Assembly (NCBI GenBank): GCA_964582365.1
Contig: CAZOQV010000003.1
Location: 1 to 59,103, forward strand
DNA from: an uncultured Gammaproteobacteria bacterium
GTDB lineage: Bacteria; Patescibacteriota; Microgenomatia; UBA12405
Length of the DNA: 59,103 bases
Reading direction: 5' to 3'
Shown here one piece after another: positions 9,435 to 36,913 of this stretch; position 1 is the first letter of the stretch; each line of letters begins with the position of its first letter. A model generated the notes under the pieces. The model was given only the letters and a program-made list of their open reading frames with translations. It searched no databases and was not told the DNA's origin. A program made the position numbers and the translations under genes.

Positions 9435-9458
9435 ATTTTTCCTTTAATAATTAATAAA

Positions 9459-9558: not shown

Positions 9559-9572
9559 AAATTAATATTAAT

Positions 9573-10573: not shown

Positions 10574-11812
10574 ATGAAAATTTTACTTTTAAGTCACATT
10601 TTTCCTCCAGCCATTGACGGTGGCTCAAAAGTCATTTACAAGCTCGGTCAGTATTTAAAATCCCAAAATCATCAAACTCTTTATGTTTCCTCCAATTGTT
10701 CCAGCACCGACGATTTCGTCAAATCAAAATATAAAAAAATATCTGCAATCAACGATCTATCATCTACGATCTATTTACCCGTTTATCACCATCTTCGTCG
10801 TCCTCTGAAACTATTTCAAATTATTTGTACTAATTTTTTATTCATAAATCCTAATTCTTATTTCATAAATCTAATTAAAATATTTCAGAAAGGTCCAATC
10901 TTTAAAATTATTCCATTTTTAAAAGCCATTCACCAAATTTTAAAATTCAAACCAGATTTAATTATCGCCGGCCCACTTCCAACTACCATCATTTTGTATG
11001 CTGAATTAATAAAAAAAATATCTAGGATCTATAATCTACGACCTAAGGTCTTACTTAATGCTTCCTTTCATCCCACTGATCAAGACTTTCAACAAAAACC
11101 ATTAATTAACACCTTAAAAAAGGCAGATTATTTATGGGCTCTTACCCAATCAGAAACCGATTATTTTATTAAAAACTTTAATATCGATCCTCAAAAAATT
11201 ATTCTTGCTGGTAATGGAGTTGATGAAAATTTTCTCACCACCAAAAAAATATCTACGACCTACAATCTACGATCTAACATCTTATTTATCGGTTCTCTTG
11301 CTTCCCATAAACGTGTTGATCTTTTAATCAAATCATTTTCTACGATCTACAATCTACGATCTAACGCCTCACTTACTATTGCTGGTCAAAAAACTCTTTA
11401 CTATCCTCAAATTGAAAAACTAATCAAATCTCTCGACCCAAAAACAAAAGCTAAAATTAAATTCATTTTTGATTTTAAATCAAAAGATTTAGCCAAAATT
11501 ATCGACAATTGCTCAGTTTTAATTTTACCTTCAGTTCAAGAAAGTTTCGGTCTCGTTATTATCGAAGCTTGGGCTCGCCAAAAACCTGTCATCTGTGCCG
11601 ATATTCCAGCTTTAAAAGAATTAGTTAAGAAATCAAATGGAGGTTTATTGTTTAAAGCTGACGATCAAAACGATTTGACCAAGCAAATTCAATTTATTTT
11701 AGACAATCCGCAAAAAGCACAACAACTGGGACAAAATGGTTACGATTATGTTAAAAATAACTATACTTGGAAAAAAGTTGGTCATAAAATATGTCAAGAA
11801 ATATCATTCTAA
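10574..11812 (+). CDS. glycosyltransferase family 4 (GT-B fold) carrying four ATCTACG-type arrays
   Basis: N-terminus KILLLSHIFPPAIDGGSKV. C-terminal domain ILPSVQESFGLVIIEAWARQKPVICADIPALKELV (E-x7-E region). Confidence 0.8.
   Translation: MKILLLSHIFPPAIDGGSKVIYKLGQYLKSQNHQTLYVSSNCSSTDDFVKSKYKKISAINDLSSTIYLPVYHHLRRPLKLFQIICTNFLFINPNSYFINLIKIFQKGPIFKIIPFLKAIHQILKFKPDLIIAGPLPTTIILYAELIKKISRIYNLRPKVLLNASFHPTDQDFQQKPLINTLKKADYLWALTQSETDYFIKNFNIDPQKIILAGNGVDENFLTTKKISTTYNLRSNILFIGSLASHKRVDLLIKSFSTIYNLRSNASLTIAGQKTLYYPQIEKLIKSLDPKTKAKIKFIFDFKSKDLAKIIDNCSVLILPSVQESFGLVIIEAWARQKPVICADIPALKELVKKSNGGLLFKADDQNDLTKQIQFILDNPQKAQQLGQNGYDYVKNNYTWKKVGHKICQEISF
10741..10775 (+). repeat. ATCTACG-family heptamer array (degenerate, 5 units), in-frame in GT4
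   Basis: Units ATCTGCA ATCAACG ATCTATC ATCTACG ATCTATT, read as ISAINDLSSTIY. Confidence 0.7.
11040..11067 (+). repeat. ATCTACG-family heptamer array (4 units), in-frame in GT4
   Basis: Units ATCTAGG ATCTATA ATCTACG ACCTAAG, read as ISRIYNLRPK. Confidence 0.75.
11252..11279 (+). repeat. ATCTACG-family heptamer array (4 units), in-frame in GT4
   Basis: Units ATCTACG ACCTACA ATCTACG ATCTAAC, read as STTYNLRSN. It matches the array at 11339-11366 at 26 of 28 positions, including a 20-nt identical run. Confidence 0.85.
11339..11366 (+). repeat. ATCTACG-family heptamer array (4 units), in-frame in GT4
   Basis: Units TTCTACG ATCTACA ATCTACG ATCTAAC, read as STIYNLRSN. Confidence 0.85.
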
Positions 11813-12246
11813 TTATTAGTCCTATTTTAATAGTAATAGCCGGAATTCTAATTTGGCGATTATTTTTTTATCTTCCACCATCAAATTCTGTCAAAATTAA
11901 AATTAAAAATATTGATTACAAAATCGAATTAGCCAAAACTACAACTCAAAAATCAAAAGGGTTGTCTGGAAGAGAAACTCTTTGTAAAAATTGCGGCATG
12001 CTTTTTATTTTTGGCTTTGAAACCAATCTCCCTTTTTGGATGAAAAATACCCTTATTCCTCTTGATATAATTTGGCTTGATAAAAATGGAAAAATTGTCG
12101 ACATTCAAACTATTACTGAAATTAATTCCACCAAAATTCATCAAAATCAAACTCCAGCCAAATATGTACTCGAACTAAACGCTAATGATTCACAAAAAAT
12201 AAACCTTAACATCGGCGATGTTATTCAGTTACCCAATACTTTATAA
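11791..12246 (+). CDS. DUF192 domain protein
   Basis: N-terminal TM segment, then ELAKTTTQKSKGLSGRETL..CGMLFIF......FWMKNTLIPLDIIWLDKNGKIV, the DUF192 signature. Overlaps the upstream GT4 by 22 nt. Confidence 0.75.
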   Translation: MSRNIILIISPILIVIAGILIWRLFFYLPPSNSVKIKIKNIDYKIELAKTTTQKSKGLSGRETLCKNCGMLFIFGFETNLPFWMKNTLIPLDIIWLDKNGKIVDIQTITEINSTKIHQNQTPAKYVLELNANDSQKINLNIGDVIQLPNTL

Positions 12247-12276
12247 CTTTATAAACTTTATAACTTGACAAACTTC
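12238..12276 (+). repeat. CTTTATAAC/CTTGAYAAAC 8-9-nt tandem array spanning the DUF192 stop and the TTG start of the next GT2
   Basis: Sequence actttataactttataaactttataacttgacaaacttc. It shares AACTTTATAACTTGA with 15596-15647. Confidence 0.75.
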
Positions 12277-13248
12277 TCTATAATTATTCCAAACTACAAC
12301 GGTGCCAATTTTTTAACCGATTGTCTTAACTCACTTAAAAAAGCTATCGATAATTGTCCTAGTTCCGAATTCGAAATAATTTTGGTTGATAATAATTCCC
12401 ATGACAATAGTCTTGAAGTTTTTGAAAATATTATTCCTAAAAATTTTAATTATCGGATTTTATTAAATTCCCAAAATAATGGTTTCGCTAAAGCTGTAAA
12501 TCAAGGTATCGAAAAAGCTAAATATAAATGGGTAGTCTTGCTAAATAATGATCTGACCATGGAAGCAAATTGGTTTCAATTAATTTCTGAAAATATTAAA
12601 AAAAATAAAGATCCTAAAATAGCCACTTTTTTTGGTACTGTTTTAAATAAAGATGGCACCAAATTTGAATCCCAAGGTTTAAACTTTTTTTATTCTGGCA
12701 AATGCCAAAATATTTCTAATGGCAAAAAATTTCATAAATCAAAAATCTTAAATCTTAAATCTTCTCTTGTTTGGGGAAGTTCCGCTGCTTTTGTTGTTTA
12801 CAATAAAGAAATATTAACTAAATCTGGTTCTTTTGATGAAGATTTTTTTGCTTATGAAGAAGATGTTGATGTTGCTTTGCGACTTCACAATTTAGGCTAT
12901 AAAACTTTATACATTCCTCAAGCTATTTCTTATCACCTTGGAGGTGGCACTAGTAATAAAATGGGGATATTTAGATATAAAATGGATGCTAAAAATTGGC
13001 ACTATATTATTATTAAAAACTTTTCGACACCAGAAATTATAAAAAAATTTTTCAAAATTACAGAAGAACGCCTCAGAAACTTATCAGGATTAACTAAGCA
13101 AACCATCCATGCCTATAAAATAAAAGCATTTTTTTATTTACCTTTCATTATAATTTCTACCTACGGTCAAGTTTTGATAAATATTCCCAAAATGTTAAAA
13201 AAACGCAAACAAATCCAAAAATTGTTAAAATTAGAAATTAGACATTAG
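12265..13248 (+). CDS. glycosyltransferase family 2
   Basis: FSIIIPNYNG, ILVDNNSHDNS, NNGFAKAVNQG and FFAYEEDVD (DxD/ED region). TTG start; there is no in-frame ATG before the conserved SIIIP strand. Confidence 0.85.
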   Translation: MTNFSIIIPNYNGANFLTDCLNSLKKAIDNCPSSEFEIILVDNNSHDNSLEVFENIIPKNFNYRILLNSQNNGFAKAVNQGIEKAKYKWVVLLNNDLTMEANWFQLISENIKKNKDPKIATFFGTVLNKDGTKFESQGLNFFYSGKCQNISNGKKFHKSKILNLKSSLVWGSSAAFVVYNKEILTKSGSFDEDFFAYEEDVDVALRLHNLGYKTLYIPQAISYHLGGGTSNKMGIFRYKMDAKNWHYIIIKNFSTPEIIKKFFKITEERLRNLSGLTKQTIHAYKIKAFFYLPFIIISTYGQVLINIPKMLKKRKQIQKLLKLEIRH

Positions 13249-13258
13249 AAATTTTGAT
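13224..13258 (+). repeat. TTRGAAA heptamer array containing the stop codon of the GT2 gene
   Basis: Units GTTAAAA TTAGAAA TTAGACA TTAGAAA TTTTGAT. The reading frame gives LKLEIRH, then TAG at 13246-13248. Confidence 0.85.
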
Positions 13259-13265
13259 TTAATTT

Positions 13266-14402
13266 ATGATCATCGGCATAGATATCTCCACTATTCCCTA
13301 CAAAACCGGCGTTAGTAATTACACTTTAAACCTCGTTAGAAATTTAGTTAAAATTGACAAAATTAATACCTACAAACTTTTTTATTCATCTCTTCGTCTT
13401 CCTTTTCCATCAGAAATAATGGAGATCAAAAAAAATCATCCTAACATCAAACTTTATCACTATAAATTACCTCCAACTTTTCTCCAAATTTTATGGAACA
13501 AATTAAAACTTTTTCCAATTGAATTTTTTATTGGTTGTTGCGATGTTTTTCACACCTCAGACTGGACCCAACCCCCAACCATAAAAGCCAAAACTATTAC
13601 TACTGTTCATGATCTTACTCCTTTTTTACATCCAGAATGGCATCATCCTAAAGTAATCGTTGCTCATAAAAATAAAATGTTCTTAGCTTCTAAAAAATGT
13701 TCTAAATTTATTTGCGTTTCTCAAAGTACTAAAAATGATTTATTAAAAATATTTTCCAAAATTAATCCCCAAAAGATTGAAGTTGTTTACGAATCAGCTG
13801 AAGAAAAATATGGAAAATTTTTAAAACTTTCTCCAGAAGAACAACAAAAGAAAAAGGGGACTATCGAAAAACAATATGGTTTAGAAAAATTTATTTTAGC
13901 CCAAGGTACGAGAGAACCTCGAAAAAATCTCAAAAGATTAATTGATGCTTTTATTATTTTTAAGAAAAAAAATCCAAAGTGTAAAGTTGATTTAGCTATT
14001 ACTGGAAAATACGGGTGGGGAGAAGATGTTGACGGCATCAAAGATCCTTCAGTAAAAATTCTTGGGTTTATTCCTGAAAAAGACATGGTCGCTCTCCACG
14101 CCAGCGCTCTTTGTTTAATTTATCCTTCTTTATATGAAGGTTTTGGTTTACCCCTAGTTAAATCTTTAAAAGTTGGCACTCCTATTATTACTAGTAATGT
14201 TTCATCTATGCCAGAAGTTGCCGGCAACGCTGCTCTTTATGTCAATCCTAATTCAATCGAAGATTTGGCCAAAACCATTACTAAAATGATTAAAGTTTCT
14301 GCCGTCAGAAAAAAATTAATAGCCAATGGCTTAATTCAAGCCAAAAAATTTGATTGGATGAAAACCGCCCAACAAACCTTATCGGTTTATCAAAATTTAT
14401 GA
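13266..14402 (+). CDS. glycosyltransferase family 4
   Basis: IIGIDIS N-terminus. C-terminal IYPSLYEGFGLPLVKSLKVGTPIITSNVSSMPEVAG. Confidence 0.85.
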   Translation: MIIGIDISTIPYKTGVSNYTLNLVRNLVKIDKINTYKLFYSSLRLPFPSEIMEIKKNHPNIKLYHYKLPPTFLQILWNKLKLFPIEFFIGCCDVFHTSDWTQPPTIKAKTITTVHDLTPFLHPEWHHPKVIVAHKNKMFLASKKCSKFICVSQSTKNDLLKIFSKINPQKIEVVYESAEEKYGKFLKLSPEEQQKKKGTIEKQYGLEKFILAQGTREPRKNLKRLIDAFIIFKKKNPKCKVDLAITGKYGWGEDVDGIKDPSVKILGFIPEKDMVALHASALCLIYPSLYEGFGLPLVKSLKVGTPIITSNVSSMPEVAGNAALYVNPNSIEDLAKTITKMIKVSAVRKKLIANGLIQAKKFDWMKTAQQTLSVYQNL

Positions 14403-15517
14403 TAATTGGAATTGATGGAAATGAAGCCAATATTAAAAATCGTGTCGGCGTTGGCCAATATGCTTTTAATCTCTTAAAAAATATCTATTCACTCGATCAA
14501 AAAAACCAATATATTATTTATTTGAAAGATCAGCCTTTATCAGATTTACCAAAAGTTAGACATAATTGGACATATAAAATCTTTGGACCTCAAAAACTTT
14601 GGACAAAAATTGCTCTTCCTTTTCATCTTTTTACTCAAAAGGAAAAATTAGATATTTTTTATTCTCCCAGCCATTATTCTCCTCAATTTGCTCCTTGCCC
14701 TACCATTCCTACTATTCATGATTTAGGCTATCTCCAATTTAAAAGTCAATTCACCAAAAAAGATTTTTATCAATTAACTAATTGGACCAAACAATCAATT
14801 AAAAAATCCGCCCATATTGTCACTGTCTCTAATTTTTCTAAAACTGAAATAGAAAAAATTTATCACATTAATCCTGAAAAAATCACTATCGCTTACAATG
14901 GGGTCGATAACTTTCCAAAAATCGATGATAAAAAACAAAAGGAAATCCTTTCCATCTACGATCTACAATCTAAAAACTATTACCTATACCTCGGTACTCT
15001 TAAACCAAACAAAAATATACCTTTTTTAATTAGATCTTTTGCAAAATATCTACGATCTACGATCTACGATCTAAAACCTAAGCTTGTAATAGCTGGTAAA
15101 AAAGGTTGGTTGTTTGACGAAATTTTTTCCACTGTTAAACAAGAGGGTATTGAATCCAGTATTATTTTCACCGATTTCATTGACGATAATCAAAAAACTA
15201 TTCTTTATCAAAATGCCAAAGCCTTAATTATGCCCAGCATTTATGAAGGATTTGGCATCCCTGTTATCGAAGCCATGAAATTAAATACTCCAGTAATTTC
15301 CAGTGATATTCCACCATTAAAAGAAGTAATTGAAAATAATGGCTTTTATTTTGACCCTGGCAATCAAGAAGAATTAGTTCATCAATTAATCAATTTTGAA
15401 AGACTTGATTCTAAAGAAATAAAAAAAATGACAGATCTTGCCAAAATCAGAGCCGATTTTTTCACTTGGACCAACACTGCCAAATCTGTTTTACAAGTTT
15501 TTGAACAATTCGTTTAA
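14399..15517 (+). CDS. glycosyltransferase family 4 with two ATCTACG arrays
   Basis: Start set to ATG 14399 (MIIGIDGNEAN), which forms ATGA with the upstream stop. C-terminal IMPSIYEGFGIPVIEAMKLNTPVISSDIPPLKEV. Confidence 0.85.
   Translation: MIIGIDGNEANIKNRVGVGQYAFNLLKNIYSLDQKNQYIIYLKDQPLSDLPKVRHNWTYKIFGPQKLWTKIALPFHLFTQKEKLDIFYSPSHYSPQFAPCPTIPTIHDLGYLQFKSQFTKKDFYQLTNWTKQSIKKSAHIVTVSNFSKTEIEKIYHINPEKITIAYNGVDNFPKIDDKKQKEILSIYDLQSKNYYLYLGTLKPNKNIPFLIRSFAKYLRSTIYDLKPKLVIAGKKGWLFDEIFSTVKQEGIESSIIFTDFIDDNQKTILYQNAKALIMPSIYEGFGIPVIEAMKLNTPVISSDIPPLKEVIENNGFYFDPGNQEELVHQLINFERLDSKEIKKMTDLAKIRADFFTWTNTAKSVLQVFEQFV
14954..14974 (+). repeat. ATCTACG-family heptamer array (3 units), in-frame
   Basis: Units ATCTACG ATCTACA ATCTAAA, read as SIYDLQSK. 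It lies directly before the first strand (YYLYLGTL) of the C-terminal Rossmann domain. Confidence 0.8.
15048..15075 (+). repeat. ATCTACG heptamer array (3 perfect units + 1), in-frame
   Basis: ATCTACG x3, then ATCTAAA, read as YLRSTIYDLK. Same core as 20508-20535. Confidence 0.9.
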
Positions 15518-15564
15518 ATAGGTCTAAATTTGGAATAAAATGACAAATTTTGCCTATTTATACG

Positions 15565-15582
15565 ATCCCGATTTATCGGGAT
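15565..15582. other. perfect 8+8 palindrome ATCCCGAT-TT-ATCGGGAT in the 136-nt spacer after the GT4 gene
   Basis: Read directly from the sequence. It is relatively GC-rich within an AT-rich spacer. No U-tract follows on either strand, so terminator and operator cannot be distinguished. Confidence 0.3.
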
Positions 15583-15595
15583 AAACAGTTCCTCT

Positions 15596-15647
15596 ATATT
15601 TACAACTTTATAACTTGATGAACTTTACAACTTGATAAACTATAATC
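15596..15647 (+). repeat. CTTTAYAAC/CTTGATRAAC 8-9-nt tandem array ending in TATAAT, 7 nt before the acetyltransferase ATG
   Basis: Sequence atatttacaactttataacttgatgaactttacaacttgataaactataatc. Confidence 0.75.
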
Positions 15648-15653
15648 ATATAT

Positions 15654-16247
15654 ATGAAAGATCGAACTGGTAAGAATCTAAACACCCAAGAAATTACTCA
15701 AAAGATTATCAATCGTTTTAAAACCATTTGTCTTGAATTTTGGCTTATGATTTTACGTTTTGTTGGTTTTATTCCTCTTCATTTCGTTAGAAAAATCTTT
15801 TATATGGCTTCAGGAATTAATATGCCTTGGAATTCCACTATTCATATTGGCGCTAATTTTTTTAATCCCTCAAACATCAAAATCGGTCACGACACTATCA
15901 TCGGCGATCATTGTTTTCTTGACGGTCGCACTAAATTAATTATCGGTAATCATGTTGGCATTGCCAGTCAAGTTTTGATTTACAACGACGAACATAATAT
16001 TCATTCCAGCAATTACGAAAATTCTTTTGGCCCAGTTGAAATTGGTGATTATGTTTTTATAGGACCTCGAGCTATAATTTTACCTAATATAAAAATTGGA
16101 AAAGGGGCTGTGGTTGCCGCTGGAGCAGTCGTCACTAAAGATATTCCTGATTTTGAAATTTGGGGTGGAATACCTGCTAAAAAAATAGGTGATCGAGAAA
16201 ATAAAAACCCAAATTACAAACTCGGTCGAGCCATGTTATTTCAATAA
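15654..16247 (+). CDS. hexapeptide-repeat (left-handed beta-helix) sugar O-acetyltransferase
   Basis: Repeated [LIV]-G-x4 hexapeptides (IGHDTIIGDHCFLDG, IGNHVGIASQVLI, IGDYVFIGPRAIILPNIKIGKGAVVAAGAVV) and a C-terminal GIPAKKIG. Confidence 0.8.
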   Translation: MKDRTGKNLNTQEITQKIINRFKTICLEFWLMILRFVGFIPLHFVRKIFYMASGINMPWNSTIHIGANFFNPSNIKIGHDTIIGDHCFLDGRTKLIIGNHVGIASQVLIYNDEHNIHSSNYENSFGPVEIGDYVFIGPRAIILPNIKIGKGAVVAAGAVVTKDIPDFEIWGGIPAKKIGDRENKNPNYKLGRAMLFQ

Positions 16248-16248
16248 T

Positions 16249-16794
16249 ATGATAAAAAAAACACTAATCATTTTATTTTGTCTTTTTAACGTATTTACCA
16301 TTGTTTATTTAATTACTCCAACTCCAATTCTTCCTGATCTGGTTAATAGTGTTAAATCTGACGAACCAGGTGATACTACTCAATTAGCCAATGTTTCCGC
16401 CTATTACACTAACATGACTCGCACTGAAGTCATGAATTTTTATAAAGCTTATTACAGTGGTTCATTCAGAATTATTCTTAATCATCCACCCGAAAAATCT
16501 AAAGAAATAATTAAAGACACTATTCAAAGTTACTATTTTGAAGAATTTGTTTTACCTTTTAAAGAATCACTTTTTATCAATGGTTTTGAATGGGAAAATG
16601 ATGTTTTTACTAAAGTCGAAGGCAGAGTTAAAAATAAACTGATTTTTAAAGACAAAGAATATAAGGCTAAAATTACCATTAAAACCATTCCTACTTCCAA
16701 ATCAAAACGTATCGCTGCTTTTCTGTTCACCGAAGCCGCCATTATTTTCGCTATTTACGCTTATGTTTCTTTTTTAAGGAAAAAACATGACTAA
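16249..16794 (+). CDS. hypothetical protein with N- and C-terminal TM anchors
   Basis: Start set to ATG 16249 (MIKKTLIILFCLF). No recognisable family motif. Confidence 0.4.
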   Translation: MIKKTLIILFCLFNVFTIVYLITPTPILPDLVNSVKSDEPGDTTQLANVSAYYTNMTRTEVMNFYKAYYSGSFRIILNHPPEKSKEIIKDTIQSYYFEEFVLPFKESLFINGFEWENDVFTKVEGRVKNKLIFKDKEYKAKITIKTIPTSKSKRIAAFLFTEAAIIFAIYAYVSFLRKKHD

Positions 16795-17737
16795 TCCTCT
16801 CCTTTCAATTATTATTATTTCTTACAATACCAGTCAAATTACCGTTAATTGTCTTAAGTCTATTTTTCAAGACAAAGGCTTAAAAGAAATACCTTACGAA
16901 ATTATTATCATCGATAACGATTCAAAAGACGATTCTGTTGCTCAAATTAAAAAATTAAAAAAATCATTAGATATTAGAAATTTGAAATTAGAAATTATTG
17001 AAAACAAATTTAATGCTGGTTTTGGAAAAGCCAATAATCAAGGATTAAAAATTGCTAAAGGTAATTATATTTTATTACTAAACTCAGATACTCTAATTTT
17101 ACATTCAGCCATCAGCCAATCATTAAATTGGCTTTGTTCACATCCTGAAGTTTCTGTTTGTACTGCTCAATTATTAAATAAAGATAAAACAATTCAAGCT
17201 TCTGGTGGTTTTTTCCCCAATCTTTCCAATGTTTTAACTTGGTGCTTAAATCTCGATGATCTTCCCTTTATTAATAAAATAATCAAACCATTTCATCCTC
17301 ACACTCCCGCTTTTTATACTCATGACAATTTTTATTTAAAAGATCACCAACAAGATTGGGTAACTGGTGCTTTTATGTTGATCCGTTCATCTCACTTAAA
17401 ATCAACTGGTGGTTTTGATGAAAATTATTTTATGTATGGTGAAGAAGTTGAACTTTCTTATCGTATTAAAAAAAATAATCCTCAATTTCAAACTTGGTAT
17501 TTAATTGGCCCTCAAATTATTCACCTTGGTGGTGCATCAGCTCAAAATAGAATCGATCCACTTTTAAACGAATATCGAGGAATTTTATCTTTTTTTAAAA
17601 AACACAAAAATAATTTTGAATTCAAAATATGTGAATATCTAATTAAATTTAATGCCTTTAGCCGTGGTGTTATATACTCAATAAGAGGTCATAAAAACAC
17701 CGCCTCTCTCTACTTCCAAATATGTTCAAAAATCTAA
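16787..17737 (+). CDS. glycosyltransferase family 2 with an internal TTRGAAA array
   Basis: LSIIIISYNT, IIIDNDSKDDS, NAGFGKANNQG, YFMYGEEVEL. Confidence 0.85.
   Translation: MTNPLLSIIIISYNTSQITVNCLKSIFQDKGLKEIPYEIIIIDNDSKDDSVAQIKKLKKSLDIRNLKLEIIENKFNAGFGKANNQGLKIAKGNYILLLNSDTLILHSAISQSLNWLCSHPEVSVCTAQLLNKDKTIQASGGFFPNLSNVLTWCLNLDDLPFINKIIKPFHPHTPAFYTHDNFYLKDHQQDWVTGAFMLIRSSHLKSTGGFDENYFMYGEEVELSYRIKKNNPQFQTWYLIGPQIIHLGGASAQNRIDPLLNEYRGILSFFKKHKNNFEFKICEYLIKFNAFSRGVIYSIRGHKNTASLYFQICSKI
16967..16994 (+). repeat. TTRGAAA heptamer array (4 units), in-frame in GT2
   Basis: Units TTAGATA TTAGAAA TTTGAAA TTAGAAA, read as LDIRNLKLEI. It lies immediately upstream of the conserved N-x-GF-x-x-A-NQG motif. 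Confidence 0.85.
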
Positions 17738-19137
17738 AATTAAATATTTTTCGACCAATAATTGCCATTCTTATTTTGTTTATTCCTCTTTATCCTAAAT
17801 TTCCTTTAGCCAGTGTCAAGGGAACTTATGTCGCTATTCGCCTTGATGATATTGTTATCGCTTTGGCCATTTTAATTTGGTGTATTTATCAAATAATTCA
17901 CAAATTTCCAGTTTTTAAAGTTAAAATTACCAAATTATTTTTAGTCTATTTTACGGCTATTGTTGCCAGTTTTGTGACTGCTTTTTTAATCTACCAAACC
18001 GAACCTGCTAACATACTTATTCTTCATTTAATTAGACGTTTTCAGTATATGTCTTTGTTTTTTATTGCTATCCAAAGTGTCAAATCAAAACAAGATTTAA
18101 ATTTTAGCTATATTTTCCTTTTAATAACTACTTTTTTTGTCAGTCTTTATGGATATGGCCAAAAATATATCGGTTTTCCGGTAATTTCAACCATGAACTC
18201 TGAATTTTCCAAAGGCCAATTACTTCAAATGAGTACTTGGACTCGTATCAGTTCTACTTTTGCCGGACACTACGATTTAGCTGCCTTCTTAAGCGTCGCT
18301 TTAATAATTATTGGCATTGTTTTTATCATAAGTAAAAATAAATTAATCAAAATATCAAGTTTAATTATTTGGATTGCTGCTTATCCAATTTTAACTTTTA
18401 CTGCCTCTCGAGTTTCCATTTTCGCTTTTATCGGTGGCATTTGTTTTACTCTTTTTGTTCTAAAAAAATATTTTTGGACTATTCCTTTCATTTTTCTTTT
18501 TTTCTTTAGTATTATTAACTCAGCTGAATTAAGTCAAAGATTATTGGCTACCATTCCTGCTTTTAAGACTCAATTAACTAAAAAAACCACTATTACTCCA
18601 ACTATTGTTCCAACCGTCATTCCAACTTCTGTTCCAGTTGTCGCTGTTATTTCTCAAACTCCAAATTCTATTAAAATATCACCAACTCCAACTATGGTTC
18701 GTCACGTTTCCACTGAAATTTTTCCTACTGCCGACATTGACGCTGGTGTTGCTCGATCTGGCGAAATTCGTTTTAATGTTGAATGGCCACGAGCTTTACG
18801 GGCTTTTAGTAAAAATCCCATTACTGGTAGTGGTCTCGGGTCTATCACCTTAGCTACCGACAATGATTATCTCCGATCTTTAGGAGAAAGTGGGTTATTA
18901 GGTTTTGCCACTTTTGCAATTATTAATCTATATTTCATAATAAAAACAATCCCTAAAATATTTAAAAGAAAATCTACCGTCTGCGATCAATTATCTATTA
19001 TTTTTTTAGGTTGTTTATTAACAACTTTAGCTAACGCTATTTTTATCGATGTTTTTGAAGCTTCAAAAACTGCTTATCTTTTTTGGATAATGATGGGCTC
19101 TTATTACCAATTACTCAATTTTAAAGATGAAAAATAA
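17722..19137 (+). CDS. O-antigen ligase / Wzy-like polymerase family membrane protein
   Basis: About 10 TM segments. Wzy_C-like FTASRVSIFAFIGG. A large loop has a Pro/Thr/Val-rich linker (TPTIVPTVIPTSVPVV...SPTPT). C-terminal TM pair. Confidence 0.65.
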   Translation: MFKNLKLNIFRPIIAILILFIPLYPKFPLASVKGTYVAIRLDDIVIALAILIWCIYQIIHKFPVFKVKITKLFLVYFTAIVASFVTAFLIYQTEPANILILHLIRRFQYMSLFFIAIQSVKSKQDLNFSYIFLLITTFFVSLYGYGQKYIGFPVISTMNSEFSKGQLLQMSTWTRISSTFAGHYDLAAFLSVALIIIGIVFIISKNKLIKISSLIIWIAAYPILTFTASRVSIFAFIGGICFTLFVLKKYFWTIPFIFLFFFSIINSAELSQRLLATIPAFKTQLTKKTTITPTIVPTVIPTSVPVVAVISQTPNSIKISPTPTMVRHVSTEIFPTADIDAGVARSGEIRFNVEWPRALRAFSKNPITGSGLGSITLATDNDYLRSLGESGLLGFATFAIINLYFIIKTIPKIFKRKSTVCDQLSIIFLGCLLTTLANAIFIDVFEASKTAYLFWIMMGSYYQLLNFKDEK

Positions 19138-20338
19138 AAGAAAGATTTTAATGATTACTCCATATATTCCACGTCTTTCTCAGTCTGGTGGTCAAAACAG
19201 CTCTTTTTATTCTATAAAATATTTATCACCCGACAACGACATAACTTTAATTTGTCTTAGCGCTGACGAAGAAGGTTTAGATGACGTCAAGCCATATTGT
19301 TTAAAAGTTGTCGTCGTTAAACGAGGTAAAACTTGGGATCCTAAAAAAGTTTTATTAACTGGTCTCAGCCCTTATCCTTTTTTAGTGATGAAACATATCA
19401 ACAAAAACTTTCGTCAAGCAATTCAAAATGAACTAGATTCCAACTCTTTTGACCTCATCCACTGTGACTGTTTTTATCCAATGCCCAACATTCCCGATAC
19501 TAAAATCCCTATCGTCTTAGTCGATCTTACAATTGAATATAATGTTTATAAACATTACGTCGAGACTGTCACTGGCTGGAAAAAAATAATTAAGCCACTT
19601 CTTTGGATTGATGTTCTTAAGTTAAAATACTGGGAAACTCATTATTGGAAGCATACTCACACTGTTGTTGCCTTTGCCGAAGAAGACCAAAAACTAATTT
19701 CCAAAATTACTGGCCGTACCGATATTAAACTTTTTAAAAACGGAGTGGACAATAAATTTTTTGATTCAAAACCAAAAACTGACAAAAGCAAACATCCTTC
19801 CATTCTCTTTGGTGTTTCTAATATGAAGTGGATGCAAAATCGCGAATCAGTCGAAATGATTATTAAAGATTCTTGGCCTGAAATTAAAAAGGAAATACCC
19901 GAATGTAAACTTTACATTATTGGTCGTCACGCTCCTGATTATTACGGTCATTATCAATCCGATGATGTAATTGTTGAAGAAGCTGATTTTGATGGTCAAC
20001 CAAAAGATCCCATCTATTATTATCAACATTGTTGGACCTTAATTGCTCCAATGGGCAGTGGGGGAGGAACTCGTAATAAATTTCTTGAAGCCATGGCCTG
20101 TAAACTTCCAATTGTTACCACTCCAGAAGGTATGGGCGGCATTAAAATTGAAAACTTTAAACAATCTATAGTTTGTGACTATAAAGATATAGCCAAATAT
20201 ACCATTAATCTTTTAAAAGATGATAAAAAAAGAACTATTATGGGGAATGAAGCCAATAAACTCATCAGCAGTAAATATTCATATCAAAGTAGTGTTAATG
20301 GCTTAAACCAAATTTATAAAGAAATTACCAAAATATAA
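19127..20338 (+). CDS. glycosyltransferase family 4
   Basis: KILMITPYIPRLSQSGGQ N-terminus. C-terminal IAPMGSGGGTRNKFLEAMACKLPIVTTPEG. Confidence 0.8.
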   Translation: MKNKRKILMITPYIPRLSQSGGQNSSFYSIKYLSPDNDITLICLSADEEGLDDVKPYCLKVVVVKRGKTWDPKKVLLTGLSPYPFLVMKHINKNFRQAIQNELDSNSFDLIHCDCFYPMPNIPDTKIPIVLVDLTIEYNVYKHYVETVTGWKKIIKPLLWIDVLKLKYWETHYWKHTHTVVAFAEEDQKLISKITGRTDIKLFKNGVDNKFFDSKPKTDKSKHPSILFGVSNMKWMQNRESVEMIIKDSWPEIKKEIPECKLYIIGRHAPDYYGHYQSDDVIVEEADFDGQPKDPIYYYQHCWTLIAPMGSGGGTRNKFLEAMACKLPIVTTPEGMGGIKIENFKQSIVCDYKDIAKYTINLLKDDKKRTIMGNEANKLISSKYSYQSSVNGLNQIYKEITKI

Positions 20339-21259
20339 ATGGATTTATCAATCATAATTTTAAACTATAATTCCGCTGATTATTTGAAAAAATGTCTGGA
20401 AAGTATCAGTAAATCAGATCTTGGTAATTATAAATATGAGGTAATTGTTGTTGATAATTCTTCTACTGATAACAGTATTGATCTCGCCAAAAATTTTACT
20501 AATAATTATCTACGATCTACGATCTACGATCTGCTTAAAACTAATTTGGGCTTTGCTCATGGCAACAATCAAGGTCTTAAAGAGATAGACTCTAAGACTA
20601 GATTTGTTTTATTTTTAAATCCAGACACTCTTGTCGAGAAAGATACTTTAAAAAATATGATTAGTTTTTTTGATCAAAATAAGAATGTCGATGCCGCTAC
20701 TTGTCAAATAAATCTTGCTCTTACAAACCAAATGCAACCAGAATGCCATCGTGGTTTTCCTACTCCTTGGAATTCTTTATGTTACTTTACTGGTTTATCA
20801 AAGTTATTTCCTCATTCTAAAATATTTTCTGGCTATTTTATGGGTGATTTAGATATTTCTGTTCCACACAAAATTGATGCCTGTGTCGGTGCTTTTTTAA
20901 TGGTTAAAAAAGAAGTTGGCGATAAAATTAAATGGTGGAATGAAAAATATTTTTTCTACGGCGAAGATCTTGATTTCTGTTATCAATTAAAGAAAAATAA
21001 TTTTAATTTATATTTCAATCCAAATTGTAAAATTACCCATTTTCAGGGAGTTTCTTCTGGTCTAATAACTAAAAGCAAACATCTTTCCAAGGCATCTCGA
21101 GAAACCAAAATTAAAGTAGCCAAAGCCAGTACTCAAGCCATGAAAATTTTTTATCAAGAAAATCTTTTATCCCATTATTCAGCTCCAACTAAATTTTTTG
21201 TCATGAGTGGTATTAAAATACTAGAACTTAAAAGAATTCTCAAAGCCAAATATCTATAA
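20339..21259 (+). CDS. glycosyltransferase family 2 with an internal ATCTACG array
   Basis: LSIIILNYNS, VVDNSSTDNS, NLGFAHGNNQG, FFYGEDLDF. Confidence 0.85.
   Translation: MDLSIIILNYNSADYLKKCLESISKSDLGNYKYEVIVVDNSSTDNSIDLAKNFTNNYLRSTIYDLLKTNLGFAHGNNQGLKEIDSKTRFVLFLNPDTLVEKDTLKNMISFFDQNKNVDAATCQINLALTNQMQPECHRGFPTPWNSLCYFTGLSKLFPHSKIFSGYFMGDLDISVPHKIDACVGAFLMVKKEVGDKIKWWNEKYFFYGEDLDFCYQLKKNNFNLYFNPNCKITHFQGVSSGLITKSKHLSKASRETKIKVAKASTQAMKIFYQENLLSHYSAPTKFFVMSGIKILELKRILKAKYL
20508..20535 (+). repeat. ATCTACG heptamer array (3 perfect units + 1), in-frame in GT2
   Basis: ATCTACG x3, then ATCTGCT, read as YLRSTIYDLL. It lies immediately upstream of NLGFAHGNNQG. Confidence 0.9.
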
Positions 21260-21310
21260 GACAGTCTAGTATCTTCCAATATCTTCTAATATATTCTAAA
21301 ATAATCTAAT
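21251..21310 (+). repeat. 10-nt-period direct repeats (consensus ATNTTCTAAT) filling the spacer up to the fic ATG
   Basis: Units tatctataag acagtctagt ATCTTCCAAT ATCTTCTAAT ATATTCTAAA ATAATCTAAT. The last unit contains the A and T of the start codon (21309-21311). Confidence 0.7.
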
Positions 21311-22205
21311 GAAAGATTATAATGATCTTGTTATTCAAATTGAAGCTTTAAAACTTTTTTTTAAAAAACTTGAAACCCATCAAGCTATTAAAAAAAATAT
21401 TCTTCGAAATTCTTTATTAAAAAGTGCCAGATTTTCAAGTAAAATAGAAGGTGCAGATTCAAAACTAGAAATTGATAATCTTTTCAAGGCCTATCAATAC
21501 ATAACTTTAAAAAAATCGCCAAAAGAGATATCTTTAAATTTTATAAAGGAACTCCATAAAATTGTTTTAAATAATATTTCTTCAGACTCTGGGCAATTTC
21601 GTACCGAACCTTGTGCTATTTACAACACTGCTGGTGTCGCTATTTATCTGGCTCCTCCAGCTCAAAAAATTCATGAATTACTAAATAATTTAATTGAAGA
21701 GATTAATAACAGTCAAGAACATTGTTTAATCAAAGCTGCTATTTTTCAATTTAAATTTGAAAAAATACATCCATTTTTGGACGGTAACGGTCGTATCGGC
21801 CGTCTTATTTCTTATCTAATTTTATATAAAAATGGTTTTTCCTTTAATGGCTATTTATCTCCAGAAGAATATATAAGTAAATATCGTGAAATTTATTATG
21901 ATTGTTTAGACTCAGACAAAGATTATCAACCTTTCGTTAAGTTTTTTTTAGAATCTATTCTAAATCAGATTAAAACAACTTTTAATGATTTAAAAAATCC
22001 AAATAATCTTAACCATCTTTTACCTCGCCGTCGTGAAATTTATGAAATAATAAAAGATCACCCCAATTGTTCCTTTGATTTTATAAATCGTCGTTTTACT
22101 AAAATTAATCCAAAAACACTTCACTACGATTTATCTAGATTACAAAAAGAAAATTTAATTATTAAAGCTGGTGTCTCTCGTGGAGTCACTTATGTTATAA
22201 AATAA
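21309..22205 (+). CDS. Fic family protein (class II, N-terminal inhibitory motif) with a C-terminal winged-helix-like tail
   Basis: Canonical Fic motif HPFLDGNGRIGRL. N-terminal SSKIEG matches the (S/T)xxxE(G/N) inhibitory helix. The C-terminal ~70 aa is HTH-like (TLHYDLSRLQKENLIIKAGVSRGVTY). Confidence 0.9.
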   Translation: MKDYNDLVIQIEALKLFFKKLETHQAIKKNILRNSLLKSARFSSKIEGADSKLEIDNLFKAYQYITLKKSPKEISLNFIKELHKIVLNNISSDSGQFRTEPCAIYNTAGVAIYLAPPAQKIHELLNNLIEEINNSQEHCLIKAAIFQFKFEKIHPFLDGNGRIGRLISYLILYKNGFSFNGYLSPEEYISKYREIYYDCLDSDKDYQPFVKFFLESILNQIKTTFNDLKNPNNLNHLLPRRREIYEIIKDHPNCSFDFINRRFTKINPKTLHYDLSRLQKENLIIKAGVSRGVTYVIK

Positions 22206-22218
22206 AATAAAACAAAAC

Positions 22219-23364
22219 ATGAAACATATTGTTATTGACGCTCGTCTCTATGGCCCAAAACACACCGGTATTGGTCGCTACACCAAAAATCTTCTCAAAG
22301 CCTTAGTTAAACTCTCTGATTTTAAAAATTATAAATTTACTTTAATAATTTATAAAGAATTAGAAAAAGATGTTAAAAAAGATTTAGGTGATAATTTTAA
22401 TTATGTTACCACCAACATTAAACATTATTCCCTAAAAGAACAACTTTTTTTACCTTTTATTCTTTATAAATTGCACCCAGATTTAGTCCATTTCACTCAT
22501 TTTAATAAACCAATTCTTTATTTTAAAAAATCAGTCGTCACTATTCATGACTTAATTAAACATTTCTCTAAAGGCAAAGAAACCACCACTAAAAGTCAAC
22601 TTTTGTACAAAATAAAATATCTTGGTTATTTAATTTTAATTCGCACCATTGTTACTCGAAATCAAATTATTGTTCCTAGTAATTTTTGGCGCGATTTTTT
22701 AATCAAAAAATATCACTTAAAAGATTCCCACGTTGTCACCACTTATGAAGCCGTCGACCCTACTTTTTTACCAAACACCAATAAAGAAGAAGTTGAAAAT
22801 TTGAAATTAGAAATTGGAAATTGGAAATTGGAAATTGGAAATTATATTATTTATACGGGTAATCTTTATCCCCATAAAAATATTATTGTTGTTTTAAAAG
22901 CTCTTAAAAAATTATCCAACATAAAACTAAAAATTATTTGTGCTCGTGATTTTTTTAGTGAAAAATTATCAAAACAGATTAACCATCTTAAAATTAAAGA
23001 CCAAGTTGAATTTCTTGGTTATCTCGACGATCAACAATTTAAAGAAGTTTATCAACAGGCTTTAGCCCTTGTTCATCCATCTTTAATGGAAGGTTTCAGT
23101 TTAACTGGTCTTGAAGCTATGGCTTTAAATTGTCCGGTTGTATCGTCAAATTCAAGTTGTCTTCCAGAAATTTACGGTGATTCAGTTCTCTATTTTGACC
23201 CTCAAAATCCAGACGATTTAGTTGAAAAAATTAACCAACTAAAAAACAATTTAGGCCTACGCCAAAAATTAATTGATCTCGGACATCAACAACTCAAAAA
23301 ATATTCCTGGAATAAAACTGCCGAACAAAGCATGACTGTTTACAAGAAAATATTAGAAATTTGA
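22219..23364 (+). CDS. glycosyltransferase family 4 with internal and terminal TTRGAAA arrays
   Basis: HIVIDARLYGPKHTGIGRY N-terminus. C-terminal VHPSLMEGFSLTGLEAMALNCPVVSSNSSCLPEIYG. Confidence 0.85.
   Translation: MKHIVIDARLYGPKHTGIGRYTKNLLKALVKLSDFKNYKFTLIIYKELEKDVKKDLGDNFNYVTTNIKHYSLKEQLFLPFILYKLHPDLVHFTHFNKPILYFKKSVVTIHDLIKHFSKGKETTTKSQLLYKIKYLGYLILIRTIVTRNQIIVPSNFWRDFLIKKYHLKDSHVVTTYEAVDPTFLPNTNKEEVENLKLEIGNWKLEIGNYIIYTGNLYPHKNIIVVLKALKKLSNIKLKIICARDFFSEKLSKQINHLKIKDQVEFLGYLDDQQFKEVYQQALALVHPSLMEGFSLTGLEAMALNCPVVSSNSSCLPEIYGDSVLYFDPQNPDDLVEKINQLKNNLGLRQKLIDLGHQQLKKYSWNKTAEQSMTVYKKILEI
22793..22841 (+). repeat. TTRGAAA heptamer array (7 units, four perfect TTGGAAA), in-frame in GT4
   Basis: Units TTGAAAA TTTGAAA TTAGAAA, then TTGGAAA x4, read as ENLKLEIGNWKLEIGN. 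It lies directly before the first strand (YIIYTGNL) of the C-terminal domain. Confidence 0.92.
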
Positions 23365-23387
23365 AATTAAAAATTTGAAATTAAAAA
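23353..23387 (+). repeat. TTRGAAA-family array containing both the TGA stop of one GT4 and the TTG start of the next
   Basis: Units TTAGAAA TTTGAAA TTAAAAA TTTGAAA TTAAAAA. Stop at 23362-23364 and start at 23375-23377 sit in successive copies of the 14-nt unit TTTGAAATTAAAAA. Confidence 0.85.
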
Positions 23388-24460
23388 TCGCATTATTTTA
23401 TGATTGGTTAAATCAGTGGGGCGGAGCTGAAAAGGTTTTACTTGATCTAATTAAAATTTATCCTGAAGCACCAATCTATACTTTAATTTACGACCCTAAA
23501 AAAACCAAATGGCTTCCCAAAAAAATTAAAATTATTCCCTCTGTTTTAGACAAATTATCTCTTTCAAAAAAAAATTCTATTCTTCAAACTCCATTTTATG
23601 CCCTATCTTTAAAACAATTTGATTTTTCTCAATATGACATTGTTATCTCTACTACTCAAGTAATTGGTCATAGTCTCTCTATTCCAAAAAACACTCTTTA
23701 CGTCTGTTATTTTCACAATATTAATCGTTATATTTATCAAACTCCACCTGGTTTCAAACTTTTAAAACCACTTCTAAATCTATATCAAAAAATTGATTTT
23801 AGTTATGGCCAAAAACCAGATTATTTATTTTGTAATTCCAATACTGTTAAAAAAAGAATTGCCGATGCTTATAAAAGAGAAGCTAAGACAATTTATCCTG
23901 GCATTGACACTTCATTTTTTGTTCCCTCAAAAAACAATTCTAATGAAAAATATTTTTTAATAGTATCTCGTCTTGTTTCTCACAAAAAAATTGATCTTGC
24001 TATTCAAGCCTGTCATCAATTAAATCAAAAATTATATATTGTCGGCGCTGGTCGTGACAAAAATAAATTAAATAATTTAATTAAATCTCTCAAAGATCCC
24101 AATATTAAACTATTAGGCCAAGTCGACAATAATAAATTATTAAATCTTTATCAAGAATGTTTGGCTTTAATCTGCCCTCAGCTAGAAGATTTCGGATTAA
24201 CTCCGATTGAAGCTCAATCATGTGGCAAACCAGTTATTGCCTACGATAAAGGGGGATTAACCGAAACAGTTATTAACGATAAAACCGGAATTTTATTCAA
24301 TCATCAAACTGTCGAAAGTTTAACTTCTGCTCTTAAAAAATTTAATCCAAATAATTTTTCCAAAGAGACTTGTCAAAAAAATGCAAAAAAATTTTCTAAT
24401 CAAAACTTTATGCTAAACTTTAAAAAAGAAATAGATCTCCTATGGAAAAACCATCAATAA
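23375..24460 (+). CDS. glycosyltransferase family 4
   Basis: KIALFYDWLNQWGGAEKVL N-terminus. C-terminal ICPQLEDFGLTPIEAQSCGKPVIAYDKGGLTETV. TTG start. Confidence 0.8.
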   Translation: MKLKIALFYDWLNQWGGAEKVLLDLIKIYPEAPIYTLIYDPKKTKWLPKKIKIIPSVLDKLSLSKKNSILQTPFYALSLKQFDFSQYDIVISTTQVIGHSLSIPKNTLYVCYFHNINRYIYQTPPGFKLLKPLLNLYQKIDFSYGQKPDYLFCNSNTVKKRIADAYKREAKTIYPGIDTSFFVPSKNNSNEKYFLIVSRLVSHKKIDLAIQACHQLNQKLYIVGAGRDKNKLNNLIKSLKDPNIKLLGQVDNNKLLNLYQECLALICPQLEDFGLTPIEAQSCGKPVIAYDKGGLTETVINDKTGILFNHQTVESLTSALKKFNPNNFSKETCQKNAKKFSNQNFMLNFKKEIDLLWKNHQ

Positions 24461-35466: not shown

Positions 35467-35501
35467 TTAGAAATTGGAAATTAGATATTAGAAATTAAAT
35501 A
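35467..35501 (+). repeat. TTRGAAA heptamer array (5 units) ending 1 nt before the murC/mpl ATG
   Basis: Units TTAGAAA TTGGAAA TTAGATA TTAGAAA TTAAATA. Confidence 0.88.
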
Positions 35502-35502: not shown

Positions 35503-36879
35503 ATGCATATTCACATTTTAGGAATCGCTGGCACCATGACCGCCTCACTAGCTGTCGCTTTAAAAAAACAAGGGAATTTAGTCTCTGGTTCCGATCAAGA
35601 CAAAATTTATCCACCTATCAGTACCATTTTAGAAGAAGCCGATATAAAAATAAATTCTACTCCAATTAATTCTTCAATTGATTTGGCTATCATCGGATCA
35701 TCCTTTTCTAGTTTTCAAAGAACTAAAGATGAATTTGAGCAAATTAAAAAATTAAAGATCAAATATATTTCTGCCAGCGAATACATTGCCAAAAACTTAA
35801 TTAAAGAAAATTCAATTTTAATTGCTGGAACTTATGGTAAAACAACCATTACTTCCATTGTTTCTTGGATTTTTAATCAAGCCAAATTAAATCCCAATTA
35901 TATGTTTGGAGGTAAAGCTTTAAATCGTTTTCCATCAGTCAATATTTCACCTACAAATTGGTCTATCATCGAAGCCGACGAATCAATTCATGGTCTCGAT
36001 AACCAAGCTAAATTTCTTTATTATCCAGTTAATTTTTTATTATTGACCAGCGCCGATTGGGAACATAAAGATTCTTATCCTACTGAAATTGCCAATTTTA
36101 ATGCTTTCAAAGCATTAATTTTAAATGTTTCTAAAGATGGAATTTTATTTATAAATTCTCAAGGCTATCAGACCAAAGAATTAAGTCTTTACTCAAAATC
36201 AAAAATAGTTACCTACAATTCAATTGAATCTAATTATTTTATAAAAAATACAAAAATCAAGAAAAATTATTCTATCTTGACTATAAAAACTCCTCGAAAT
36301 ATCTTAAAAATCAAAACTAAATTAATCGGTCAATTTAACTTTGAAAACATTTTAGCAGCCATTGCTATTACCGATAGTCTAAATATTCCTCAAACTAAAA
36401 TTAAACAAGCCATTTCTAAATTCAATGGAATAAATCGTCGTCTTGAAAAAATTTATGATCATAAAAAAATTATTATATTTGATGATTTTGCCCAATCTTC
36501 CAATAGAATTAAATCAACGATTGAAGCCATAAAACAACATTTTCCAAAAAATAATATAAAAGTTTTATATCAACCTCATGCCTCTTTTATCCAACACAAA
36601 GAAAGTATTAAAAATTTTAATCATGTTTTCGATTCAGCCTCTGAAGTTGTTTTAACTCAATTAACTTTTAACAAAAACATTGACAAAAATGAACGCGTCA
36701 CCGCCAAAGATTTTAAAGAGGTGGTTGGAGACAAATTAATTTATTTTCCCATCGATGAAGATGTTTTAAATCATTTTCAAAAAACTCTTACAAAAGGAGA
36801 TATACTCATAAACATGAGTTCTGGTGGTTTTACTGGAAATAAAATAATGAGAAAATTAATATTAGAAATTAGAAATTAG
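35503..36879 (+). CDS. Mur ligase of the MurC/Mpl family
   Basis: The N-terminus MHIHILGIAGTMTASLAVALKKQGNLVSGSDQDKIYPPISTILEE closely follows the Mpl/MurC N-domain pattern. GTYGKTTITS P-loop. The C-terminus ends in an array-encoded LILEIRN. Confidence 0.8.
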   Translation: MHIHILGIAGTMTASLAVALKKQGNLVSGSDQDKIYPPISTILEEADIKINSTPINSSIDLAIIGSSFSSFQRTKDEFEQIKKLKIKYISASEYIAKNLIKENSILIAGTYGKTTITSIVSWIFNQAKLNPNYMFGGKALNRFPSVNISPTNWSIIEADESIHGLDNQAKFLYYPVNFLLLTSADWEHKDSYPTEIANFNAFKALILNVSKDGILFINSQGYQTKELSLYSKSKIVTYNSIESNYFIKNTKIKKNYSILTIKTPRNILKIKTKLIGQFNFENILAAIAITDSLNIPQTKIKQAISKFNGINRRLEKIYDHKKIIIFDDFAQSSNRIKSTIEAIKQHFPKNNIKVLYQPHASFIQHKESIKNFNHVFDSASEVVLTQLTFNKNIDKNERVTAKDFKEVVGDKLIYFPIDEDVLNHFQKTLTKGDILINMSSGGFTGNKIMRKLILEIRN

Positions 36880-36913
36880 AATTGTATTTATATTAAAAAT
36901 TAGAAATTATATT
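36862..36913 (+). repeat. TTRGAAA arrays (3 + 2 units) with a duplicated AT-rich tail, spanning the murC/mpl stop and the spacer to murA
   Basis: TTAGAAA TTAGAAA TTAGAAT (TAG stop at 36877-36879), then tgtatttata, then TTAAAAA TTAGAAA TTATATT. Confidence 0.88.

Follow-up and report, generated by a model that had tools for sequence, protein, structure and literature searches.

Short tandem arrays of heptanucleotides were found inside paralogous glycosyltransferase (GT) genes of families 4 and 2 in a 59,103-nucleotide stretch of DNA (the window: positions 1 to 59,103, forward strand, of contig CAZOQV010000003.1, GenBank assembly GCA_964582365.1), and arrays of unrelated heptamer families occupy the same structural positions of each fold. 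By the paralogue alignment and the structural models, the equivalent sites in the C-terminal domain of the GT4 enzymes are the linker that precedes beta1 and the loop alpha1-beta2, and in the GT2 enzymes the alpha2-beta3 segment. We consider it probable that the arrays are a dispersed heptamer micro-repeat, similar to the short tandemly repeated repetitive (STRR) sequences and the Rickettsia palindromic elements (RPE), which selection confines to the permissive segments of each fold. An original prediction, made from the sequence alone, had offered two explanations, that these loops are the only places where insertions are tolerated, or that the arrays are targeted or selected there. The first was well supported, as the strongest hot spots of indels and entropy among 118-120 orthologues coincide with these sites, unrelated elements are found in them, array codons are nearly neutral, and copies also occur outside GT genes. 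The data covered the 59 kb of the window genome and relatives' loci of up to 21 kb.

The G+C content of the window is ~30%. Pfam analysis identified 11 GT genes, in agreement with the earlier count: six GT4 genes starting at 10574 (GT4a), 13266 (GT4b), 14354/14399 (GT4c), 19127, 22219 (GT4e) and 23375 (GT4f), and five GT2 genes starting at 12265 (GT2a), 16787 (GT2b), 20339 (GT2c), 55568 and 56421. They are embedded in a polysaccharide cluster together with Wzy-like, hexapeptide transferase, NTP-transferase and Bac_transf genes. Tandem Repeats Finder and a period scan showed 21 period-7 tandem runs in the window, compared with at most 6 for each of the periods 5, 6 and 8-11. When up to three mismatches were allowed, ATCTACGATCTACGATCTA (ATCTACG-type) gave 16 overlapping matches against 0.01 expected from dinucleotide-preserving shuffles, and three units of TTRGAAA gave 21 matches against 0.32 expected from shuffles. 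All of these matches lie on the plus strand, which is the transcribed strand, the intergenic TTRGAAA copies included. The repeats belong to an ATCTNNN superfamily (8 loci per 59 kb), to TTRGAAA (8-9 loci) and to at least one third family (TTAGTAA). Arrays consist of 2.7-4.6 units (7.9 in GT4e) with a unit identity of 73-100%, they are about 21-49 nt long, typically four units, and 11 of the ~19 lie inside coding sequences. The only Rfam matches of the window were two tRNAs. Each of the seven segments listed by the original prediction proved to be a heptamer array at the coordinates given, and three further ones had been overlooked, namely two ATCTACG-type arrays in GT4a (10748-10774 and 11017-11044) and an ATCTTAA variant in GT2a (12735-12763). 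The ATCTNNN and TTRGAAA arrays are listed in Table 1.

The alignment of the paralogues showed that the arrays of GT4a, GT4c and GT4e immediately precede the strand reading ILFIGSL, YYLYLGTL and YIIYTGNL, respectively (site 1), and that the second arrays of GT4a and GT4c sit between the following helix and the L-x-I-A-G motif (site 2). At site 1 of GT4b the linker is long and non-repetitive, as had been claimed. In the GT2 enzymes the arrays of GT2b and GT2c precede the N-x-GF motif, and this site is indeed encoded twice by different families, by TTRGAAA in GT2b and by ATCTACG in GT2c. An AlphaFold2 model of GT4c, built from 60 orthologues (mean predicted local distance difference test score, pLDDT, 86.5), matches GT-B family-4 structures such as MshA, BshA, WaaG and PimA. 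In this model, array 1 forms the C-terminal end of helix 177-186 and the loop preceding strand 194-198, and array 2 forms the end of helix 207-219 and the loop preceding strand 228-232. In the AlphaFold2 model of GT2c (pLDDT 80.9), the array (residues 57-66) forms the loop after helix 46-51 and the entire beta3 strand (60-66), so that in GT2 a strand, and not a loop alone, is array-encoded. The structural equivalence of the array positions was thereby upheld by the alignment and by both models. The description of the arrays as loop insertions needs correction for this GT2 array, which encodes the strand too, and for site 1 of GT4c, where the array is a replacement of the same length.

Orthologues of GT4c, GT2c and GT4a are numerous (54-96% identity), and the named ones belong to Candidatus Shapirobacteria or Woesebacteria, that is, to the Microgenomates of the Candidate Phyla Radiation (CPR). 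The glycan cluster is syntenic throughout the loci fetched from relatives. In the cluster, heptamer arrays are essentially absent from the loci L045 and L047 (75-81% identity), and L043 has a single one, in Wzy; the arrays of GT2b, GT2c, GT4e and GT4a are absent from L045, L047 and L049. In codon-level alignments against relatives, the GT2b array is an insertion of 8 codons and the GT4e array one of 10-11 codons; the GT2c array adds net 3 codons with part of the native sequence replaced, the GT4a array at residues 148-157 adds 5-6 codons, site 2 of GT4c adds 2 codons to the short form, and site 1 of GT4c is replaced at the same length. The net length changes between filled and empty sites were 0, +6, +9, +15-18, +24 and +30-33 nt, multiples of 3 and not of 7, and neither target duplications nor terminal inverted repeats were visible in this comparison.

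The same positions are the most variable ones of the orthologous proteins. Among 120 orthologues of GT4c, no indel block is larger than site 2 (0-22 residues in 15 length classes), which is also the top entropy window, and site 1 lies at the 93rd entropy percentile. The sole internal indel blocks of GT2c overlap its array (120 orthologues), and the four largest indel blocks among 118 orthologues of GT4a match its four arrays exactly. In other lineages these sites hold a GC-rich hairpin, ATCTGAA-type arrays (LTSEKLKSE), a family with a period of 8 residues, and many ATCTNNN variants. The hairpin element is ~40 nt long, reads CCCCTCCTTT..AAAGGAGGGG followed by GTTGGGGGTGG, and lies in frame in the GT genes of relatives, where it is translated, depending on the frame, as SPALSREGFRKGF, TPRLVKEGxxGRF, TPCPVKGRVGEGF or SSLHQGRMSEGQVG; the two copies of L043, at sites 1 and 2, are translated in different frames. 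A pattern scan found no member of this hairpin family in the window's 59 kb. The inserts with 8-residue period (SNVLKFQRSN, LTKALTFQHSK and LLLKAKSYLLPAKL) occur in GT4a orthologues including P0242, P0271, P0276, P0315 and P0344, and their periodicity is suggestive of tandem octanucleotide arrays. That sites 1 and 2 would invariably share one family was ruled out, as many GT4a orthologues mix families.

Since very different elements converge on the same positions, the common factor appears to be a property of the site, its tolerance, rather than targeting by a particular element. Active targeting, in which a site- or structure-specific insertion reads a DNA feature common to paralogous sites, would fit several observations: several copies are preceded by an A-rich tract and TATCTA, the empty GT2c site already has TATCTA, the empty GT2b site in L045 is A-rich and weakly 7-periodic, and orthologous sites have been refilled in many lineages. 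However, AT-rich heptamers, CG-containing heptamers and GC-rich hairpins all use the same sites, no flank is common to all of them, the net length changes vary from 0 to +33 nt, and arrays are also found in unrelated contexts (the isoleucyl-tRNA synthetase gene, intergenic DNA and gene ends). We therefore regard targeting as unlikely.

The repeats also occur outside the GT genes, and in coding DNA they pass a stop-codon filter. In isoleucyl-tRNA synthetase (IleRS) a TTRGAAA array replaces a variable segment of the same length between the catalytic and the anticodon-binding domains, and other TTRGAAA arrays are intergenic (35467 and 36893) or extend across gene ends. Whichever frame is read, the repeat (ATCTACG)n yields the cyclic heptapeptide IYDLRST, while its reverse complement contains TAG in every frame, and no reverse copies were found. 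In (TTAGAAA)n, a TAG recurs every 21 nt; the three internal TTRGAAA arrays all have TGG or TTG in the unit of the AAT-TAG phase. Four stop codons are supplied by arrays, namely TAG in GT2a, the Mur ligase gene and the Wzy-like gene, and TGA from a TTTGAAA unit in GT4e. Coding arrays are thus found only in stop-free orientation and in stop-free unit variants. Coding copies were shown to be confined to freely varying positions, which are the GT-B linker and alpha1-beta2 loop, the GT-A alpha2-beta3 segment, and others, the latter comprising two N-domain loops of GT4a, the IleRS linker and C-termini. A pause at domain linkers caused by rare codons was also considered and dropped, as TTRGAAA arrays use the commonest codons of this AT-rich genome. 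As a separate observation, the IleRS itself (46885-49752) matches structures of the eukaryotic cytoplasmic or related type 2 with E values of about 1e-218 to 1e-204, and the bacterial type-1 structures 1ffy and 8c9e far more weakly (about 1e-93 to 1e-86).

To describe how the arrays evolve, the window was compared with close strains, each of which spans only part of the cluster. Against L056 (94% identity), codon positions 1 and 2 differ by 5.8% in arrays and by 1.9% in the rest of the genes, while codon position 3 differs by 5.8% and 8.3%, respectively. The array codons evolve almost neutrally, and these differences indicate almost no constraint on the arrays at the protein level. In L058 (99.2%) there are no indels across the arrays at 13225, 14954, 15048 and 16966, and in L054 (96%) there are none across the array at 20505. 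In L056, indels are found only at the 3'-terminal array of GT2a (13226-13254), where GC-rich sequence takes the place of the TTRGAAA array, and none in the seven internal arrays covered. The orthologous genes are all intact in these three strains.

The stable length of the arrays between close strains argues against phase variation driven by slippage. Were the arrays contingency loci, slippage by one heptamer would shift the frame and toggle the surface-glycan GT genes, as in NeuO, the capsule O-acetyltransferase of E. coli K1. NeuO carries a heptanucleotide variable number tandem repeat (VNTR) in its coding region, three units of which encode one heptad peptide, and its reading frame is retained only for suitable repeat lengths (PMC3046976). 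Besides this precedent, the 7-nt unit is not a multiple of 3, the arrays lie inside cell-envelope GT genes, some are perfect (15048 and 20508), and each array has homogenised units (TTAGAAA in the window, TTGGAAA x4 in L052). But the arrays lie in the middle of genes and hold 3-5, at most 8, mostly imperfect units, the repeats also occur in the essential IleRS, and neither a copy-number change nor a frameshifted allele was found in strains at 99.2, 96, 94, 89 and 80% identity or among the 118-120 orthologues of each gene; the differences are point substitutions at the background rate. Contingency switching is accordingly very unlikely, and phase variation was rejected, no length polymorphism having been seen among related strains.

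The arrays do change in concert. Unit variants are shared by the units of one array, so that GT2b has TTAGAAA in the window and four perfect units of TTGGAAA in L052, and the array of GT2a at 12735 has ATCTTAA in the window, ATCTACC x4 in L049 and ATCTACA in L043, with GC-rich elements at the orthologous place in L045 and L047. Blocks of 28-33 nt are common to the sites within a genome and different between genomes: the window has TCTACGAyCTACAATCTACGATCTAAC at sites 1 and 2 of GT4a, both sites of L047 have ATCTGACATCTGAAAAACTGAAATCTGA, two sites of L060 share an identical 32-nt block, ATCTAACATCCAGCATCTAACATCTAACATCT, of which a third site has a shorter copy, and L061 has ATCTAAGATCTATCATCTA at three sites. 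Among the array peptides of GT4a orthologues, the identity across sites within a protein (0.718) exceeds that at the same site between proteins (0.623; permutation P <2e-4). Variants that are common within a genome but differ between genomes indicate that array copies exchange sequence, and the sequences point to concerted evolution of the arrays among the sites of one gene. The simplest explanation would be that copies convert one another over short tracts or are re-seeded from a source specific to the lineage.

Sharing of variants within a genome could also arise if the arrays encoded a functional peptide or mRNA motif, for binding, modification or regulation, that co-evolves with a trans-acting partner, and the location of all copies on the transcribed strand, even the intergenic TTRGAAA copies, would agree with it. 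We give this explanation hardly any credence, as dN of the array codons is close to dS, the hairpin copies at sites 1 and 2 of L043 are read in different frames, and many orthologues have no element, or an unrelated one, at these sites. A further reading is that the 28-33 nt heptamer blocks and the GC-rich hairpins of sister lineages represent a new class of self-propagating CPR micro-elements, which would continually remodel, and perhaps functionally diversify or switch, the surface loops of envelope GTs. Such micro-elements would overwrite permissive loops by short templated conversion and stay homogeneous in each genome; we regard their existence as a speculative possibility that is rather doubtful.

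Whether whole domains are exchanged along with the arrays was examined in the relatives' loci. If the arrays served as recombination handles, paralogous GTs, or alleles of other strains, would swap domains or the beta1-alpha1 module through them. The arrays are direct repeats of the same orientation at the GT-B interdomain linker, and they exchange sequence with one another. Yet no chimeric GT gene was found in any syntenic locus of relatives, all relatives examined retain strictly orthologous segments between and around the arrays, and the module from site 1 to site 2 is specific to the orthologue (ILFIGSLxSHKRVDLLIKSF in GT4a, YYLYLGTLKPNKNIPFLI in GT4c). We also located tract boundaries by a two-state hidden Markov model on the density of single-nucleotide polymorphisms (SNPs) against three close strains. 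Six of 25 boundaries lay near an array (at most 35 nt away) compared with 2.56 expected (P ~0.03); the test is marginal, and it is confounded by the higher local divergence of the arrays, several of the tracts being the more variable arrays themselves. Between the window and L058, 36 of 57 SNPs fall in a 336-nt tract at the 3' end of GT2a (12942-13277), which ends 27 nt past the TTRGAAA array at 13225; many of these positions also differ from L056, and the tract has the appearance of recombination or replacement in the lineage of the window. For exchange of the RecA type, 21-33 nt of homology is marginal. The proposal that the arrays are targeted, or act as recombination handles between paralogues, thus found no support, and handles seem to us most improbable; of the suggested exchange, that of sequence among the arrays stands, while domain exchange between GTs is not supported.

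Under the micro-repeat reading, copies of heptanucleotide repeats would populate a Shapirobacteria-like CPR genome, in coding and non-coding DNA alike. New copies would arise from other copies by short templated patches or gene conversion and not by classical transposition, because the net changes are multiples of 3 rather than 7 and come without target duplications or terminal inverted repeats. Purifying selection would then eliminate every copy that lands in the structured core, so that paralogues of one fold would keep copies at the same few permissive places, whichever family the copies belong to.

Several points weigh against this explanation. GT genes account for ~20% of the coding DNA but for ten of the 11 internal coding arrays; local spread or relaxed constraint could explain this excess, yet some selection related to GTs may also contribute. 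Together with the concerted blocks of up to 33 nt and the restriction to one strand, it is a residual oddity that may leave room for an active process. The estimate of near-neutrality comprises 12 substitutions only, and the census extends over the 59 kb and the relatives' loci. The case for permissiveness is circular in part, since elements of this kind largely define the hot spots, and the copying mechanism is a step that we only infer.

The closest known systems share some of these features. Like the STRR sequences of cyanobacteria, the arrays consist of 7-nt units in short head-to-tail runs, with several unrelated families at many loci per genome; they differ in their host (a Shapirobacteria-like CPR bacterium, not a heterocystous cyanobacterium), in their units and in being shorter, and many of them lie in frame inside genes and are translated, whereas STRR sequences are mainly intergenic. 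STRR sequences are reportedly also present in the cyanobacterial RNase P RNA gene, at variable positions. RPE are selfish repeats of ~100-150 bp, palindromic and in frame in conserved genes. The arrays resemble them in being dispersed, in frame and at positions compatible with the fold, and in varying in presence between related genomes, but they are built of heptamers in direct tandem, measure 21-49 nt and lack inverted symmetry. The GC-rich hairpin of the relatives is nearer in form to RPE or to repetitive extragenic palindromic (REP) sequences, but measures only ~40 nt. With the poly-psi VNTR of NeuO and the simple sequence repeat (SSR) contingency loci of GT genes, the arrays share heptanucleotide repeats in coding regions of surface-polysaccharide enzymes and a unit that is not a multiple of 3. 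The NeuO array, however, is 5'-terminal, has 2-93 copies and changes length frequently, whereas the window arrays are mid-gene, with 3-8 imperfect copies, and constant in length among related strains; the long near-perfect tracts and copy-number polymorphism of SSR loci were not seen here. Unlike MITEs (miniature inverted-repeat transposable elements) and other transposon-derived elements, the window arrays have no terminal inverted repeats or target-site duplication. A limited literature search found no description of such elements in CPR bacteria.

Exact (ATCTACG)x3 was also found at 42 loci (L001-L042) in genome contigs of unrelated phyla, none from this lineage, compared with ~0.3 expected for a random 21-mer, with no control heptamer. 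The phyla include Acidobacteriota, Chloroflexota, Verrucomicrobiota and Gammaproteobacteria, with several loci per metagenome-assembled genome (MAG), for example 4 each in Acidobacteria nzgw77 and Chloroflexia SMAG_U15799. In two AT-rich gammaproteobacterial MAGs (L013 and L024) it seems to occupy the same site in orthologous proteins. A scan of viral contigs gave no match.

Some further features of the window were recorded. Members of the third family, (TTAGTAA)n and (TTACTAM)n, lie inverted at 7887-7923 and 8289-8322 and bracket a 23S_rRNA_IVP / bAvd-like gene (7924-8280, minus strand), with arms of 18-21 nt that are 86-94% complementary. This gene is missing at the corresponding place in L043, L045 and L047, and L056 lacks all of window positions 7890-9575, that is, both this gene and metK. 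A GC-rich hairpin, CCCCGCAACTGCGGGG, lies at 9509-9554 in the leader between metK (8328-9434, minus strand) and the upstream gene and has no Rfam match. A search for exact copies of the MetK protein of the window returned none. A Fic/DOC gene (21309-22205) fills a variable slot between GT2c and GT4e, which holds a cytidine-deaminase-like gene in L054 and is empty in L052, L049, L043 and L047.

Table 1 Heptamer arrays of the window and GC-rich hairpin copies of relatives
Feature	Position	Strand	Remark
GT4a, glycosyltransferase, GT-B family 4, four ATCTACG-type arrays	10574..11812	+	Pfam Glycos_transf_1 / Glyco_transf_4
ATCTACG-type array, GT4a aa 59-67 INDLSSTIY, N-domain hot spot	10748..10774	+	other elements here in orthologues
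ATCTACG-type array, GT4a aa 148-157 KISRIYNLRP, N-domain hot spot	11017..11044	+	5-6 aa insertion vs L043, L045
ATCTACG-type array, GT4a site 1 ISTTYNLRSN, immediately before beta1 of C-terminal Rossmann domain	11251..11279	+	
ATCTACG-type array, GT4a site 2 STIYNLRSN, alpha1-beta2 loop	11338..11366	+	near-identical to site 1 copy
ATCTTAA/TAAATCT variant array, GT2a aa 157-167	12735..12763	+	
TTRGAAA array across GT2a 3' end	13225..13251	+	array TAG = stop codon
ATCTACG-type array, GT4c site 1 SIYDLQS	14954..14974	+	same-length replacement before beta1
ATCTACG array, GT4c site 2 YLRSTIYDLKPK, alpha1-beta2 loop	15048..15082	+	3.7 perfect and 2 degenerate units
TTRGAAA array, GT2b SLDIRNLKLEII	16966..16997	+	8-codon insertion before N-x-GF
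ATCTACG array, GT2c YLRSTIYDLL, loop and beta3 strand	20505..20535	+	net +3 codons vs most orthologues
TTRGAAA array, GT4e site 1 ENLKLEIGNWKLEIGN, ~7.9 units	22789..22843	+	10-11 codon insertion before beta1
TTRGAAA-type array, GT4e 3' end and GT4f start	23348..23388	+	stop TGA inside array
TTRGAAA array, intergenic, upstream of Mur ligase gene	35467..35497	+	
TTRGAAA arrays, Mur ligase 3' end and next spacer (36893)	36859..36906	+	array TAG = stop codon
TTRGAAA array, IleRS aa 671-684 ELEIRNWKLEIGNL	48896..48934	+	variable linker before anticodon-binding domain
TTRGAAA array, 3' end of Wzy-like gene	58246..58268	+	array TAG = stop codon
GC-rich hairpin copies	L043 6829-6870, 6953-6986; L045 7845-7893, 8354-8393; L047 7689-7755, ~10670-10715		

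CPR bacteria have tiny genomes and are thought to be strongly streamlined. Despite this streamlining, the present lineage carries several micro-repeat families within the proteins that build its cell envelope. The sites provide a natural saturation map of the positions of the GT-A and GT-B folds that accept foreign peptide, and they indicate that repeats of up to 30 nt are capable of concerted evolution across the sites of one gene. They also call for caution in annotation, as seemingly conserved motifs in these proteins, such as STIYDLRS, are by-products of the repeat. If the copying is active, it would be a compact and so far undescribed route by which bacterial proteins gain and exchange loop sequence.

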